A DNA stretch of 64,000 nt from assembly GCA_017617415.1 (NCBI GenBank), contig JAFZWH010000093.1, forward strand, positions 26,218-90,217, read 5' to 3'. Position numbers and translations under genes: made by a program. Position 1 is the first letter of the stretch. Every line of letters starts with the position of its first letter. The DNA is from Victivallales bacterium. GTDB lineage: Bacteria; Verrucomicrobiota; Lentisphaeria; Oligosphaerales; Oligosphaeraceae. The notes beneath the pieces were generated by a model. It was not told where the DNA came from, did not search any database, and saw only the letters and a list, made by a program, of their open reading frames with translations. Below, in pieces: positions 23,186 to 64,000 of the stretch.

Positions 23186-23303
23186 GACACCATACTTTAA
23201 TACCTAAAACCAATATACTATTGTGGCGACGGCCAATTTCCTCGTCGCATTAGTCCATTTCGAATAGAAACCAGATTTTGATACACGTGACTGTTTTGGC
23301 GTG

Positions 23304-23400
23304 GTCTGTCCCCGTGCTTTGATACACGTGACTGTTTTGGCGTGGTCTGTCCCCGTGCTTTGTGGTGCGCCGCGTTGGTCTGTCCCCGTGGTCTGTCCCC
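23304..23400 (+). repeat. Array A of decamer GTCTGTCCCC (4 direct copies)
   Basis: Copies start at 23304, 23345, 23378 and 23391, each preceded by TG(G). The first two lie in a perfect 41-bp tandem duplication (23280-23320 and 23321-23361). Confidence 0.9.
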
Positions 23401-23542
23401 TGAAAATCTCCTTGGGTAAGGACCAGCCTTTTCGTAAAAGCAATCGCTCGACACGCACAACAATGTGCGAAATCTGTGTTACATTGTGAGAAAGTTCTTT
23501 TTCATTGCCATAATCTACTTTTTCCATATCTGGAGATTCTTC

Positions 23543-25309
23543 ATGACCAAACTCGACCCGACCAAATTGGCTGACTGGCAGATTGCCGAGGCTGCCGAAG
23601 CCACCATGCTTGCCCCGCAACAACTCGCTGACAAGCTTGGACTTCTACCAGAAGAACTCATTCCCTGGGGACGCCAGCTCGCCCGCGTGGACCAACAGGC
23701 CATCCGCGCCCGCCTCGCCAACGCACCGCAGGCCAAGTACATCGATGTAACCGCTATCACCCCCACGCCACTTGGCGAAGGAAAGACCACCACCGCTATC
23801 GGACTGATTGACGGCCTCGCCAAGCGTGGACACCGCGTCTCCGGCGCCATCCGCCAACCTTCCGGCGGTCCCACTTTCAACATCAAGGGCTCCGCAGCCG
23901 GCGGCGGCTTGGCGCAATGTATCCCGCTGACCACCTTCTCCCTCGGCATGACCGGTGATATTGACAAGATCACCAATGCCCACAATCTCGCGATGGTCGC
24001 CCTCACTGCACGCATGCAACACGAGCGCAACTACGATGATGCCAAGCTAGCCGCCCGTGGCCTAAAGCGCCTTGACATCGATCCCGATCGCGTCGAGATG
24101 AAGTGGGTCATGGACTTCTGCGCCCAAGCGCTTCGAAATATCACCATCGGGCAGGGCGGCAAGATGGACGGCGTGCCGATGCAATCCGGCTTCGCCATCT
24201 CGGTTTCCAGCGAAATCATGGCAATTCTGGCTTTGGCACAGGACCTAAGAGACCTCCGCGAACGTATTGGACGCATCGTGGTGGCCTTCAGCCGCAGCGG
24301 CGCTCCAATCACTACCCATGACCTTGAGGTCGATGGCGCAATGACCGCATTCTTGGTGGACAGCCTGAACCCGACCCTTATCCAGACCCTCGAGGGGCAA
24401 CCCGTCCTCGCCCACGCCGGTCCCTTTGCGAATATCGCCATCGGGCAGAGTTCCGTAATCGCCGATCAGATTGGCGTGCGGACAAGCGAATACCATGTCA
24501 CAGAGAGTGGATTCGGCGCCGACATCGGTTACGAGAAATTCGTTAATCTCAAATGCCGTGCCTCCGGACTACGACCGGACGCCGTGGTGGTCGTGGCGAC
24601 CATCCGTGCCCTCAAGATGCATGGCGGTGGCCCCACGGTGAAGCCTGGCGCGAAGCTGGACGACGTCTATGTCCACGAGAATCTTCCGTTGTTGGAGAAG
24701 GGCTGCGAGAATCTCCTGGCGCACATCGAGATCGTGAAGAAGACCGGCATTCAGCCGATTGTTTGCCTCAACCACTTCTACACCGACACCCCCGAGGAAC
24801 TCAAGCTTGTTCGCAAGATTGCCGAGGCGGCAGGCGCCCTGGTGGCGGTCTCTCAGCACTGGCTGAAGGGTGGCGAGGGTGCGCTGGAGCTGGCAGAGGC
24901 GGTTGAGGAGGCCACTCGTCGGCCGCACGCCTTGAAGTTCATTTACGAGAATACGCAGCCAGTGAAGGAGCGCATCGCTGCGATCGCCCATGAGGTCTAT
25001 GGCGCCGGCGAAGTCACCTACTCGCCCGAAGCCGAGGCGAAACTCCAGCTCATCGCAAACGACCCCGCGCTGGCCAAGCAGTGCATCTGCATGGTCAAGA
25101 CTCACCTGAGTCTCTCCGCCGACCCGGATGTGAAAGGTCGTCCGCGAGGCTTCACCCTCCCCGTGCGAGACATCCTGCTCTATCAGGGCGCAGGCTTCAC
25201 CGTGCCGGTCACCGGCGACATCAAGTTGATGCCCGGCACCTGCTCCGACCCCGCCTTCCGGCGCATCGACGTTGATGTCGTGACTGGCAAGATCAAGGGA
25301 ATGTTCTAA
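23543..25309 (+). CDS. fhs: Formate-tetrahydrofolate ligase
   Basis: Motifs [23 protein letters not shown] and HGGG, with length about 588 aa. The start is taken at MTKLDPTKL (ATG 23543). Confidence 0.95.
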
Positions 25310-26446: not shown

Positions 26447-28012
26447 ATGACCACCCTGACCGTTGATAGCCATGTCTTCAGCAAGCTCATTTATGAGCGC
26501 TCGGTGATTTTGGTGTCCACGGCGGATCGAATGCTGACCGGTGGGGCGGAAGCCTTCCAGCTTACTAGGCCGCTTCTGGGCGTGCTGCTCCAGGAGTCTA
26601 CCCAACTGGAAGAACTATTGGATGCATACGGCGCACGTATCAACCAGCAATGGTTCCCCTTCCGGCTGCATGTGGCTACTATTAAGAACTTCAGTACCGC
26701 TGGCTACGAGCTGCTGCACCTGCGGTCCACCATCCAGAATTATGACTTCCAGGGCACGCACCCGCATTTCCGTAGTGCCACGGAAGACGCCATCGATTTC
26801 GTGGCTTCTTTCATCTTCTGCTCGCTCCATGGATTGCTGGAAGATACCAAGCAATTTGGATGGCCGCCGCCTGAGGCGCTTCATGGATATGACTTTACCG
26901 AGAATCTCCCGGCCGGCCGGCTCCCTAAAAATCGCACTATCACCAGCCCCACCTCCGCCCAGCAGCTGGTCATCAACCTCGCGACCGATTTCCTCAACAA
27001 CACCGAGGATGCCAAATTCCTTGACAATGCGGACAAATGCCGCGCCCCCGACTGGAATGGGCTCAACTTCGACCTCCTTACCGAAACCACCTTTCTCATT
27101 CTGGAGGGAAAGTTCCACACCATGCAGTCGCTATACGACACCTATATTTCATTCAGCGACATTGAGGGCGCGGACACCTCTTTGCGTGCTCTGCGCGGAC
27201 ACATCAGCGTGGTGCTCCACCTCCTGAAGATCGCGACGATTTTTATCCATTTCTACGAGCGCCACCTCAAGGTGCAAAGCCATGAGCTCTTTTGCCACGA
27301 ACACTGCGTGCTGGAAGGGAATTGGTATATGGAGGTGCTTACCCACTACCTCTGCCATTACGCATACGAATTCCTGACCAGTGCCCGCGGACTGTGCCAG
27401 CACATGCTGCAACACTATGCGGTCATTGAGACCCGCGAGGTGCCTGTTCCACCCTACTTCGGTTTCCACGTGCGACCTTCCGCCCTGGTCTCTGCCATTG
27501 TACGTCACTACGGGGGAAAAGTCATGCTAATCCTTGATCGGGAGTATGATGCAGGAGCACCGATGAATCTTTTCCTTGTCAACGAGTGGGTGAATCAGCT
27601 TAAGCGCCAGCACGTCGGAGAGGAACTACACAAGATGGACGAGCTTCTACGGGAGACACAGACGCAGCTCGACAGTGGCAAAATCACAAAAGTCACTGCC
27701 GTACGCAATATCATACGTGCGCTGGCGCAACACGATGTCATCAACGTCCTAAAATACCCGTTGAATGTCGAACCCATCATCAATAGCTCCAGCGCACCCA
27801 CTCTGCTGGAACTCATGCAGACTATCGTGGCAACCTTGCTGGCCCAGCGTGAACTCAATATCATCTACCCTATCAAAGTCAAGTTCCGCGGTGATGCACG
27901 AGTTCTTAAGGACATTGAAATCCTCGCCGCTAACGGCTATGGGGAAAACGAGACGGGCTCCAACATCCCGTTGCCGCCGGAACTTACCTATTTGACCTTT
28001 TCGCGAGGATAA
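26447..28012 (+). CDS. Hypothetical 521-aa protein with C-terminal interrupted HPr-like domain
   Basis: Residues ~330-380 (PYFGFHVRPSALVSAIVRHYGGKVMLILDREYDAGAPMNL) match the HPr N-terminal half, including the active His. Residues ~476-500 (IKVKFRGDARVLKDIEILAANGYGE) match the HPr C-terminal half. About 90 aa are inserted between them. The N-terminal ~330 aa are unrecognised and His/Cys-rich. Confidence 0.55.
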   Translation: MTTLTVDSHVFSKLIYERSVILVSTADRMLTGGAEAFQLTRPLLGVLLQESTQLEELLDAYGARINQQWFPFRLHVATIKNFSTAGYELLHLRSTIQNYDFQGTHPHFRSATEDAIDFVASFIFCSLHGLLEDTKQFGWPPPEALHGYDFTENLPAGRLPKNRTITSPTSAQQLVINLATDFLNNTEDAKFLDNADKCRAPDWNGLNFDLLTETTFLILEGKFHTMQSLYDTYISFSDIEGADTSLRALRGHISVVLHLLKIATIFIHFYERHLKVQSHELFCHEHCVLEGNWYMEVLTHYLCHYAYEFLTSARGLCQHMLQHYAVIETREVPVPPYFGFHVRPSALVSAIVRHYGGKVMLILDREYDAGAPMNLFLVNEWVNQLKRQHVGEELHKMDELLRETQTQLDSGKITKVTAVRNIIRALAQHDVINVLKYPLNVEPIINSSSAPTLLELMQTIVATLLAQRELNIIYPIKVKFRGDARVLKDIEILAANGYGENETGSNIPLPPELTYLTFSRG

Positions 28013-28827
28013 AGGTTGGCATCGACGATTGACGCGGTGGACTCCGAGCCTGACGATTGACGCCTTTCATACCATATAGCATAGGTTTGACTGCAGAGGT
28101 CCAATGACCACAACGGGTCACCTTCATGGTCAAGTCCAAGATAACGGCTATAGGAATATTGTCCACGTTTTCGCAGACGTTGCTTCAAAAGGCGTATTTC
28201 GTTCTGGGTTCCTAACGCAAAATGACCGGAATACTTGACACTGTGGCTGGCCGCAACTATCGCTCTTCGCCCCTGTTGACGTTCCATCAGTTTCCGCTGC
28301 CAATCCAAGAACTCTTTGATGGACTGCATTTTGAGTGTATTCACAAGTAGCGCACGATCCACAATGGATACTTCGGCATCGCAATTTTGCAATTCATGGT
28401 AGGAACAGTATTTCCAGTGAATTGGATCCATGCCTTGTTGATGGTTGAGGGCATTTGCATCAATATAGGATATGACATTCTTGAAATGTGATGATGTGCC
28501 GATATGCGTAGAAGAAAATCGGTCGCGCCAAAAGTGCCCTTTTATCCCATTTACTCGGTTGAAGTGCTGGGCCATCCGGCCAGCCAGAGATTGCATTGCA
28601 CGACTGACCCGAGTAACATCGGCTCCGACTTTGACCAGTAAGTGAATATGGTTCTTCATAATGCAATAACCAAGAACAAGCAGACCGAATTTTGCAATGA
28701 CCTCCTTGAGCAACCAAAGATAGTATTCACGCATTTCTTCACTCTCGAACAGAAATTTCTGCCATTCGCATTGCTGGGTGATGTGGATGAAACTCTCGCT
28801 TTGCAGATTGCGCGCACGTCGTGCCAT
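27988..28827 (-). CDS. IS200/Y1-transposase-like protein (RAYT-like)
   Basis: HUH motif NHIHLLV, a GHFWRDRF block and a Tyr motif YIDANAL, as in REP-associated tyrosine transposases. There is an extra ~100-aa C-terminal extension. The gene is AT-richer than its surroundings. Confidence 0.7.
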   Translation of the reverse strand: MARRARNLQSESFIHITQQCEWQKFLFESEEMREYYLWLLKEVIAKFGLLVLGYCIMKNHIHLLVKVGADVTRVSRAMQSLAGRMAQHFNRVNGIKGHFWRDRFSSTHIGTSSHFKNVISYIDANALNHQQGMDPIHWKYCSYHELQNCDAEVSIVDRALLVNTLKMQSIKEFLDWQRKLMERQQGRRAIVAASHSVKYSGHFALGTQNEIRLLKQRLRKRGQYSYSRYLGLDHEGDPLWSLDLCSQTYAIWYERRQSSGSESTASIVDANLYPREKVK

Positions 28828-29096
28828 ATGACCTCCTTTTATTACGAGACTGCTTTAGGCAAATTCGTCACCTTAGTTATTGCAAACCAGACCATCTATA
28901 GGTATCCATTCTGGTAAGAATCAAAACAATGATTGATTAGCCAAATGAATGGACTACCGCAAAAAGTGGGCATTTGGGAAAACTATATCTTTCCCCTTGA
29001 AAAAAGCTATTTGCTCCAGCGCAAATCTCTGAAATTGAGAATCGTTATAAATTTATATATAAGCATTGGAGAAATTATAAAAACAGCAATGGCTTG

Positions 29097-29291
29097 GGGA
29101 CAGACGCAAGGAGCCAGTCGTTTCCCATGGGGACAGACGCCAAAATATGGCGACAGACAACAGGTGGGGATAAACCTCGAAATAGACACCGAAAACATCA
29201 ATTTGTCTCAGCATCCTATCTCTCTCAATCGTACCAAGTTGAGATAGGGACAGACATCGAAAGGGGAAAGGACGAAATAAGGGGGACAGAC
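29097..29291 (-). repeat. Array B of decamer GTCTGTCCCC (read as GGGGACAGAC on plus strand; 5 copies plus degenerate ones)
   Basis: Plus-strand GGGGACAGAC at 29097, 29129 and 29282. GGCGACAGAC at 29149. AGGGACAGAC at 29246. Weaker AATAGACACC-type copies occur near 29181 and 29299. Confidence 0.9.
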
Positions 29292-29458
29292 GCCCCAAAA
29301 TAGACACCCCAAAATAGCATGAATAACATAGGGCGGTCTTTCCGCACAATATGTTTGCTCCATGCGATAAAGTTGTCCAAAGTTGTCCAAAGGTTTCTAA
29401 AATTATGCTATATTATACAAATTACAACAGTTTTGTCTATTTATAAGGAAAAACAACT

Positions 29459-62922: not shown

Positions 62923-63543
62923 GGATTACGCAGATACCGATGCTTTTTCAAAAAAGGTCTTGGAAGGCTTGGCGAAAATGGACCCGGGACAATCGGTCTC
63001 GCCAGGCCGTCAGGTTTGCAGGTTTTAGGCAGGCTGTTAAGTGTCCAGTTGGGAGACATGGCAGTGATTAAATTAATAACTTGTTGTTAATCAACATGTT
63101 ATCTAATTAATTCGTCCCCGGTTGCAAGATGACAAACGCTTCGCCCAAAGTTGACACCATGCTTAGCTGGAGAATGGGAAACCTTATAATCACACATCCA
63201 AGAATGATGCTACAACAAGTTGGACAAAAGCAAGAACTGACACTTTTTCCTACAGACGGGAATCGACATGAGAGACCAAGCCATTGCGGACTCACAAAGA
63301 GCGAAATCACAGTGCATTAAAAAACACGACCACGCGATGAAGCTATCGCCCAGAACTGTCAGGCCGGCTGAGATGATGGGTTTGCAAGTGACTCATGAAA
63401 TGCGAAGAGGCACAAAAGCAAGCATCCAATGGTTTTTGTGTCATATCCTTGAACAAAACTATACAATATAATCTTTTCCCAGCTTTTCAAGTTCATCGCT
63501 CATACCTCGACCTCGATTAAGAATTCAGCGTCAAGAATTCAGT

Positions 63544-63827
63544 GTCTGTCCCCGTTGAAAGGCGTCTGTCCCCATGTCCCGAGAAAATGTTGATGGTCTG
63601 TCCACATGGATAAAGACTGTCCGGCGGAAAGGCGTCTGTCCTCATGTCCCGAAAGGCTTTTTTGCGTTCCACCCCCTATTGTTGGCGTCTGTCCCCACTT
63701 CAAGATGATACGTTTGAATGACTTGAGGCAAATGGGACACTGAGACAAGTGATGTATTTTGGGTGTCTGTCCCCACTTTCACCCCACTTGTTTCCGGTGT
63801 CTGTCCCCGCTTCAAGTGTCTGTCCCC
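63544..63827 (+). repeat. Array C of decamer GTCTGTCCCC (8 direct copies plus 1 degenerate)
   Basis: Copies start at 63544, 63564, 63596 (..CCAC), 63634 (..CCTC), 63687, 63765, 63799 and 63818. A degenerate GACTGTCCGG lies at 63615. A 25-nt sub-repeat AAAGGCGTCTGTCC(C/T)CATGTCCCGA occurs at 63558 and 63628. Confidence 0.9.
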
Positions 63828-63975
63828 GATGGGGCATTGAAATAGGTTTGACAGGCGTAGATTTCCGGTGCTGGACCAGGCACTTTTGAGTTTTGGGGTT
63901 GCAAATTGCTTTTCAGCAACTATATTAAGAAACTTGCTGTTATCAATTACCGCAACAATTGAGGAAATAACGACC

Positions 63976-64000
63976 ATGAAACGTACTTACCAACCGCACA
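63976..64000 (+). CDS. rpmH: 50S ribosomal protein L34, 5' fragment (runs off window)
   Basis: ATG preceded by GAGGAAA. It encodes MKRTYQPH, the near-universal L34 N-terminus. Confidence 0.7.

Follow-up and report, generated by a model that had tools for sequence, protein, structure and literature searches.

Decamer arrays upstream of rpmH, fhs and fusA in a Victivallales bacterium are probably repeat clusters of a RAYT-like Y1/HUH gene

Three clusters of one short repeat, the decamer GTCTGTCCCC, are present in the 64-kb stretch of DNA from a Victivallales bacterium that was analyzed here as a whole (the window), and our results suggest that these clusters, arrays A, B and C, most probably belong to the RAYT-like Y1/HUH homolog encoded at 27988-28827. 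Gene and repeats would then be of the TIRYT/TIRtron kind, which is related to RAYT group 1 and to TnpA-Y1 subclass 2.1. The repeats do not occur at random, and their physical linkage to Y1 genes, with a fixed polarity, holds across phyla. Diverged relatives retain them at the same intergenic positions, with decamers that are conserved while the spacers drift. The features on which the analysis rests are the following.

23304-23400, plus strand: array A, four exact copies, ending 143 bp before the fhs ATG
27988-28827, minus strand: RAYT-like Y1/HUH tyrosine-transposase homolog of 279 aa (Pfam Y1_Tnp, 2.5e-14), the presumed cognate protein of the repeats
29096-29291, minus strand: array B, located between the Y1 gene and fusA, with three exact copies and two that have one mismatch
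63544-63827, plus strand: array C, eight copies of (G/A)G(C/T)GTCTGTCCCC, six exact and two with one mismatch
63867-63894, plus strand: terminator-like hairpin with a T run, consensus match only
63899-63926, plus strand: sigma-70-like promoter match TTGCAA-16-TATATT, consensus match only

An earlier note on this DNA had described eight same-strand copies of the decamer upstream of rpmH, and this was reproduced, with all copies on the plus strand. The exact copies start at 63544, 63564, 63687, 63765, 63799 and 63818 and the one-mismatch copies at 63596 (GTCTGTCCAC) and 63634 (GTCTGTCCTC), giving the same start-to-start spacings as reported before (20, 32, 38, 53, 78, 34 and 19 bp), and a three-mismatch degenerate remnant, GACTGTCCGG, is found at 63616-63625. 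The sub-repeat with a 70-bp period within the array is real as well (26 nt, 63557/63627, 96% identical). A degenerate inverted copy, CAAATGGGACACTGAGAC, is located between copies 5 and 6 (63729-63747), and its CAAATGGGAC part is kept in the related locus L129 (see below).

The non-coding gap of about 1 kb before rpmH measures 1054 bp (62923-63976) and is divergent, with a 532-aa gene on one side and on the other rpmH, whose identity was confirmed (44-aa L34, followed by rnpA, yidD, yidC and jag). The distances given earlier from the arrays to the start codons were also borne out, i.e. 149 nt from the end of array C to the rpmH ATG (63977), 143 bp from the end of array A to the fhs ATG (23543) and 168 bp between array B and the fusA ATG (29459), and each array is situated in a divergent intergenic gap 140-170 bp upstream of start codons. 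Since the terminator-like hairpin and the promoter match both fall between array C and the rpmH ATG, the array is placed upstream of the likely rpmH promoter. A likely fhs promoter is found downstream of array A.

Thirteen exact copies of GTCTGTCCCC were present in the 64-kb window as compared to 0.17 expected from dinucleotide-preserving shuffles, none of which (0/100) reached 13, and with one mismatch allowed the count was 24 vs. 4.3 expected. All 13 exact copies are intergenic and confined to the three arrays. This agrees with the earlier observation that the same decamer is arrayed at 23304-23400 and 29097-29291 and is rare outside the arrays, and within the window its frequency is above that expected from composition. 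The flanking context given in the earlier note is corrected here to (G/A)G(C/T) in front of the decamer. The decamer had been called non-palindromic; with this context included, the whole site is a degenerate palindrome (GGCGTC-T-GTCCCC), and in some relatives the extended site is fully palindromic (GGTGAC-T-GTCACC).

A tandem duplication of 41 bp (23279-23319 and 23320-23360) is present in array A. Array B runs antisense to fusA, and its orientation relative to the Y1 gene is the reverse of the usual layout described below; a strong promoter-like match (11/12, 29439-29412, minus strand) would transcribe it in the same sense. Downstream of the Y1 gene no copies were found at up to two mismatches, the only adjoining array being the reversed array B upstream of it, while arrays A and C are located 5 kb and 35 kb away. 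Array B also contains a second short repeat, AAATAGACACC, which occurs twice (29180-29190 and 29297-29308), and a tandem 10-mer, AAGTTGTCCA, is present twice about 70 bp upstream of fusA (29370-29389).

The AlphaFold2 model of the window Y1 protein (pLDDT 82.5) has as its best PDB match 4ER8, the E. coli REP-associated transposase, and an identical protein is annotated as 'transposase [Victivallales bacterium]'. Against the NCBIfam model REP_Tyr_transpos the protein scores 53.8 bits, which is below the cut-off of 80. Its HUH motif is NHIHLL and its Tyr motif YIDANALNH, and at the C-terminus it has an alpha/beta extension, for which the whole-protein structure search returned no fold match, and neither an HTH nor a DnaA-C domain was detected in the C-terminus by Pfam or NCBIfam at E<=1. 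The signature of subclass 2.1 comprises NHVH or NH[YF]H, W[EQ], YIELNP or Y[IV]HLNP, an SS tail motif and a C-terminal HTH/conserved extension (Quentin 2018, PMC6006769). At the corresponding positions the window protein has NHIH, FWRDRF, YIDANALNH and CSY, whereas proteobacterial Y1 proteins beside the same decamer have the exact 2.1 signature (NHVH, WE, YIELNP, SS). Judged by these motifs, the window protein appears to be a divergent, Victivallales-specific relative of the subclass 2.1-type proteins.

RAYT-like genes flanked by terminal inverted repeats were described by Di Nocera, De Gregorio & Rocco in 2013 as 'TIRtrons' encoding 'TIRYTs' (BMC Genomics 14:522; PMC3733652). Many of the TIRtron repeats share the sequence GGGGWSAS and form moderately abundant families that occur as singles, dimers and clusters, and Rhodopirellula, a PVC member, is named among the TIRtron-rich genomes (PMC3733652). 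Quentin et al. (2018, PMC6006769) equated the TIRYTs with subclass 2.1 and with Bertels' RAYT group 1, reported HTH or DnaA-C-like tails for them and did not find REP-like sequences for this subclass; the 16-mers flanking group 1 genes are only modestly repeated (Bertels et al. 2017). Our decamer fits this class, as GGGGACAG matches the GGGGWSAS consensus (PMC3733652; PMC6006769) and GGGGACAGAC is the reverse complement of GTCTGTCCCC. The exact decamer was not found in the searchable literature, where the only matches were unrelated eukaryotic primers. The earlier statement that no described element has this motif is nevertheless contradicted, because GGGGACAGAC fits the published core of the TIRYT-flanking repeats (PMC3733652), and this fit together with the Y1 gene in the window makes the arrays a new example of a published class and not a new element.

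The likeness to TIRtrons extends to the adjoining Y1/HUH RAYT-like gene with its HUH motif and catalytic Tyr motif, to a gene that is single-copy and vertically inherited, and to repeats that share the GGGGWSAS-fitting core, are dispersed as clusters within the 64 kb analyzed and are not classical REP hairpins. The window arrays differ in that they are unidirectional, with up to 8-9 irregularly spaced copies, and all lie upstream of genes; inverted flanking on both sides of the gene, seen in other phyla, is absent in the window (one side, reversed), and the window protein has no HTH or DnaA-C-like tail.

With a single genome taken for each bacterial species, we scanned for pairs of decamers separated by 3-33 nt and obtained at least 120 loci, in Proteobacteria, Actinomycetota (many Collinsella), Bacillota, Spirochaetes, PVC groups, Acidobacteriota, Bacteroidota, Latescibacterota and one CPR genome. 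By our own estimate chance alone would give about 34 two-copy matches in 596 Gb, so some of the two-copy loci are noise. Among the matches listed, a Y1 homolog abuts the copies in 29 of 120 8-kb tiles, and the usual layout is GGGGACAGAC upstream of the Y1 gene and GTCTGTCCCC downstream of it. Inverted dimers that lack the gene have the same polarity (24:1 among the matches listed) and form long perfect palindromes, e.g. aaataGGGGACAGACcacgttttcc...ggaaaacgtgGTCTGTCCCCtattt. The cross-phylum flank consensus among the matches listed is aaaNcGKG-GTCTGTCCCC, and with this flank the full site is a near-palindrome. Across the listed non-Collinsella loci, which are non-independent, the spacing peaks at 22-23, 33 and 43 bp, with a periodicity of ~10.5-11 bp (R=0.25). 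In Treponema sp. Kf353_bin92 (L075, L035, L023, L118) and in Stieleria (L057, L074) 10-25 exact decamers follow one another in a single direction with 21-23 bp periods, forming very long arrays; these occur on several contigs per genome and are the most extreme expansions among the matches listed. At least two decamers, in several cases as inverted dimers, are also found on 19 IMG/VR contigs (L134-L152), and no Y1 homolog was detected in the stretches examined of these contigs.

Within the Victivallales each Y1 homolog goes with its own motif variant, i.e. the motif co-varies with the protein. The homologs, with their identity to the window protein, are as follows.

P0004 (L123-L125), 66%: arrays of GGGGACAGGC, whose 24-bp unit is present 2, 5 or 3 times in the three assemblies
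P0005 (L128), 66%: GGTGACAGTCAT, beside the Y1 gene and upstream of fhs
P0009 (L127), 60%: about 10 upstream copies of GGGGACAGAC
P0035 (L132), 46%: GGGGACAGTCACC, with palindromic GGTGACTGTCACC copies beside the gene

In L127 and L132 copies are found on both sides of the Y1 gene, inverted only in L127 and there with one-mismatch copies only, and L132 has arrays in a convergent gap and at gene ends as well. The P0004 arrays (L123:2676-2790, L124:2676-2790 and L125:2724-2790, with 2, 5 and 3 copies of the 24-bp unit) differ in copy number while the encoded protein is identical, which shows that copy number changes on short time scales.

Locus L128 is syntenic with the window in the order Y1 – 521 aa – Impact – 132 aa – fhs, and its fhs array is built from GGTGACAGTC in the same orientation and at the same distance of ~140 bp as array A. 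Between the two, fhs is 97.8% identical in protein and 81% in DNA with a third-codon identity of 48%, which means that the genomes are deeply diverged, while the 521-aa protein is 87% and the Y1 protein 66% identical (27988-28827 vs. L128:3284-4108). A 'rapid' switch of motif between the window and L128 was considered and withdrawn in view of this divergence. At array B the synteny is broken, the neighbor being fusA in the window and other genes in L128. In L129 an ortholog of the 532-aa gene (78% identical) is accompanied by the orthologous array C, in which decamer and orientation are unchanged, and the two arrays are 80% identical at decamer positions vs. 45% in the spacers. Evidently, the arrays beside fhs and the 532-aa gene are in place in the orthologous intergenic regions of Victivallales relatives, a comparison the earlier note had proposed. 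The comparison of L129 (1-140, reverse strand) with positions 23400-23549 and 63818-63830 of the window showed that the fhs promoter and the first bases of fhs (ATGACCA) follow straight on the orthologous array C and that the contig ends there. In the window arrays A and C are direct repeats 40 kb apart, and the junction is either a real rearrangement through these two arrays or an assembly join through repeats.

The spacer in front of array C contains one further conserved feature.

63380-63513, no strand assigned: 134-bp block that adjoins array C on its upstream side and is 86% identical to L129

Over its other 400 bp the spacer cannot be aligned to L129 (22%). In the block there are a hairpin, GGCACAAAAG...TTTTTGTGTC, whose G-U/A-U difference favors the plus strand, and promoter-like matches on each strand. 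A small ORF of 33 codons on its minus strand was considered; as compared to L129 its substitutions are mostly non-synonymous and the stop codon has moved, and by our reading it is therefore probably non-coding.

A similar picture of inheritance is seen outside the Victivallales. In nine Collinsella species (L011, L019, L029, L032, L033, L037, L055, L072, L097) the Y1 element occupies one chromosomal locus, and its flanks are 93-99% identical as compared to 85-92% for the element itself (98% in one pair). Together with the Victivallales identities this indicates vertical inheritance of the Y1 gene in two phyla, in both of which it evolves faster than the sequence around it.

The system resembles the REP/BIME/REPIN elements and their RAYT (TnpA-REP, PDB 4ER8) in the fold of the protein, for which 4ER8 was the top structural match, in having intergenic, genome-specific repeats that co-evolve with a single-copy domesticated transposase, and, with regard to REPINs, in the inverted dimers that the units form in other genomes. 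It differs from them in that no GTAG or CGTC tag stands beside the window copies, the cross-phylum flank consensus being aaaNcGKG, in that the window copies are direct repeats and REPs alternate, and in that the window arrays lie upstream of genes while REPs are mostly downstream. When array C was folded as single-stranded DNA its hairpin potential was z=+0.64 (76 of 100 shuffles fold as well) and no significant inverted repeats were found in it, and a REP-type hairpin, which is formed by an imperfect palindrome of 20-40 nt, was therefore rejected for the window array. The earlier view that the motif is not a hairpin and is unlike REP accordingly holds in the window but not beyond it, since the same unit forms long perfect inverted dimers in other genomes. 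That the array is too short and irregular for a CRISPR was confirmed, with a core of 10-13 nt vs. repeats of at least 23 nt and an irregular spacing of 19-78 bp. Rfam 15 at the gathering threshold gave two tRNAs only in the 64-kb window and no match for the array.

HUH Rep proteins bind direct repeats as duplex DNA, as in the AAV Rep-binding element, the geminiviruses and the pMV158 iterons. The window arrays share with these sites the short repeats in the same orientation, by analogy only, and differ in that the window has no replicon, no nick-site hairpin and no Rep helicase context.

The earlier note had offered as candidates (i) a landing pad for a DNA-binding protein, (ii) iteron-like sites and (iii) a repeat family linked to the RAYT-like gene. 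The cross-phylum Y1 adjacency, the co-variation of motif and Y1 protein in Victivallales and the literature favor the last of these. The first two are not separate from it, as the most plausible identity for the DNA-binding protein is the Y1/HUH protein.

The strongest rival to repeat clusters that belong to a TIRYT-like gene is a regulatory role in the host. The phased sites upstream of the core promoters of rpmH, fhs and fusA would here be a platform through which the domesticated Y1 protein, or another factor, controls transcription or local chromosome structure. Each of the three arrays occupies a divergent intergenic region and precedes a start codon by 140-170 bp, with the likely rpmH and fhs promoters just downstream, the position and orientation of the fhs array are kept in L128 and L129 where neutral sites are near saturation, the Y1 gene is vertical at a fixed locus in Victivallales and Collinsella, and the spacing is helically phased. 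The orientation relative to the downstream gene is, however, inconsistent, array B being antisense to fusA, the L132 arrays lie also in a convergent gap and at gene ends, and in other phyla, as is typical of repeats derived from transposons, the units are found flanking the Y1 gene or as palindromes without a gene. We regard such a platform as unlikely, and we give no higher standing to the possibility that the Y1 protein and the arrays are a long-lived, co-evolving, host-used system, in which helically phased duplex sites are fixed upstream of fhs, of rpmH and its neighbor, and of fusA, have their sequence rewritten along with a fast-evolving, vertically inherited HUH protein, and act on transcription or local chromosome structure, not on transposition. 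Some of our results do weigh against the preferred explanation. Only one side of the Y1 gene in the window has an array, which is in an unusual orientation, the encoded protein is without the HTH tail and the exact subclass 2.1 signature motifs, and the phasing statistic comes from non-independent loci. In addition, each of the three arrays is situated in a divergent gap that bears promoters, and two of them keep their position over deep divergence, which could mean a host function and not a passive element.

It is considerably less probable that the repeats act as RNA, e.g. as a multi-site sponge or a leader with eight GUCUGUCCCC motifs transcribed from a promoter in the conserved block, at 63438-63467, to the terminator-like hairpin at 63867-63894. 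The promoter-like and terminator-like matches that bracket array C on the plus strand, the match that reads array B in the same sense, an RNA fold z-score of -1.93 and the conserved 134-bp block are consistent with a transcript. Such consensus matches occur at near-background frequency, though, no promoter/terminator bracket is present at array A, Rfam gave no match, the spacers are not conserved, and the inverted layout around Y1 genes and the palindromic dimers point to the DNA level. A replication-origin feature, i.e. a variant DnaA-box cluster or iterons, is still less credible and was rejected. rpmH is a classical neighbor of oriC, and array C, which adjoins rpmH-rnpA-yidC-jag, resembles such a cluster in its multiple non-palindromic 9-10-mers and loosely in sequence (CTGTCCCCA matches TTATCCACA at 6/9 positions and one copy reads TGTCCACA); some Y1-family relatives also have a DnaA-C-like tail. 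Against this, neither dnaA nor dnaN is adjacent, the neighbors being the 532-aa gene and rpmH, boxes within one mismatch of TTATCCACA are not enriched (9 vs. 7.9 expected in the window, and none in 62923-63976), the motif differs between close relatives, unlike DnaA boxes, and the same arrays are found at unrelated loci such as fhs and flank Y1 genes. The GC skew tracks gene orientation and gives no origin signal: over the window (1-64000) the sense strand is C-rich and A-rich and the sign of the skew switches near 23 kb, 33 kb and 42 kb together with the direction of the genes, and the skew is therefore uninformative on replication. We give equally little weight to neutral local slippage or duplication without a cognate protein. 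Tandem duplications are found inside the arrays and copy number varies between strains, but one decamer is common to three separate arrays, it is conserved while the spacers have diverged, it recurs across phyla beside Y1 genes, and in relatives the motif changes in concert at separate loci, all of which contradicts this reading, and it was rejected.

If the arrays are repeat clusters of a TIRYT-like gene, as we favor, the decamer would be the conserved core of a recognition site of ~13-25 nt, GKG-GTCTGTCCCC, which is a degenerate palindrome. The Y1 protein may bind these sites, and would probably do so on a single helical face of duplex DNA, a mode that is favored by the lack of hairpins in the window arrays together with the ~10.5-11 bp phasing. 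The palindromic dimers in other genomes could also act as single-strand hairpins, as in REPINs. The arrays would grow and shrink by local tandem duplication, and copying mediated by the Y1 protein, or else gene conversion, may keep the copies matched to the specificity of the protein. Any effect on the expression of rpmH, fhs or fusA would be secondary.

RAYT group 1, or subclass 2.1, is the largest and most widespread group of domesticated Y1 transposases, and to our knowledge there is no binding or cleavage experiment for any TIRYT and no biochemistry for the group. For annotators, our results mean that such arrays are not CRISPRs, origins or regulatory novelties. They seem worth following for a decamer core that is nearly universal, for a motif that co-varies with the protein in Victivallales and for positions near promoters that stay stable. 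Taken together, a decamer core common to many phyla, a motif that co-varies with the protein and arrays that persist amid drift constitute a natural experiment, by which the recognition code and the function of the group 1/subclass 2.1 proteins are made directly testable.
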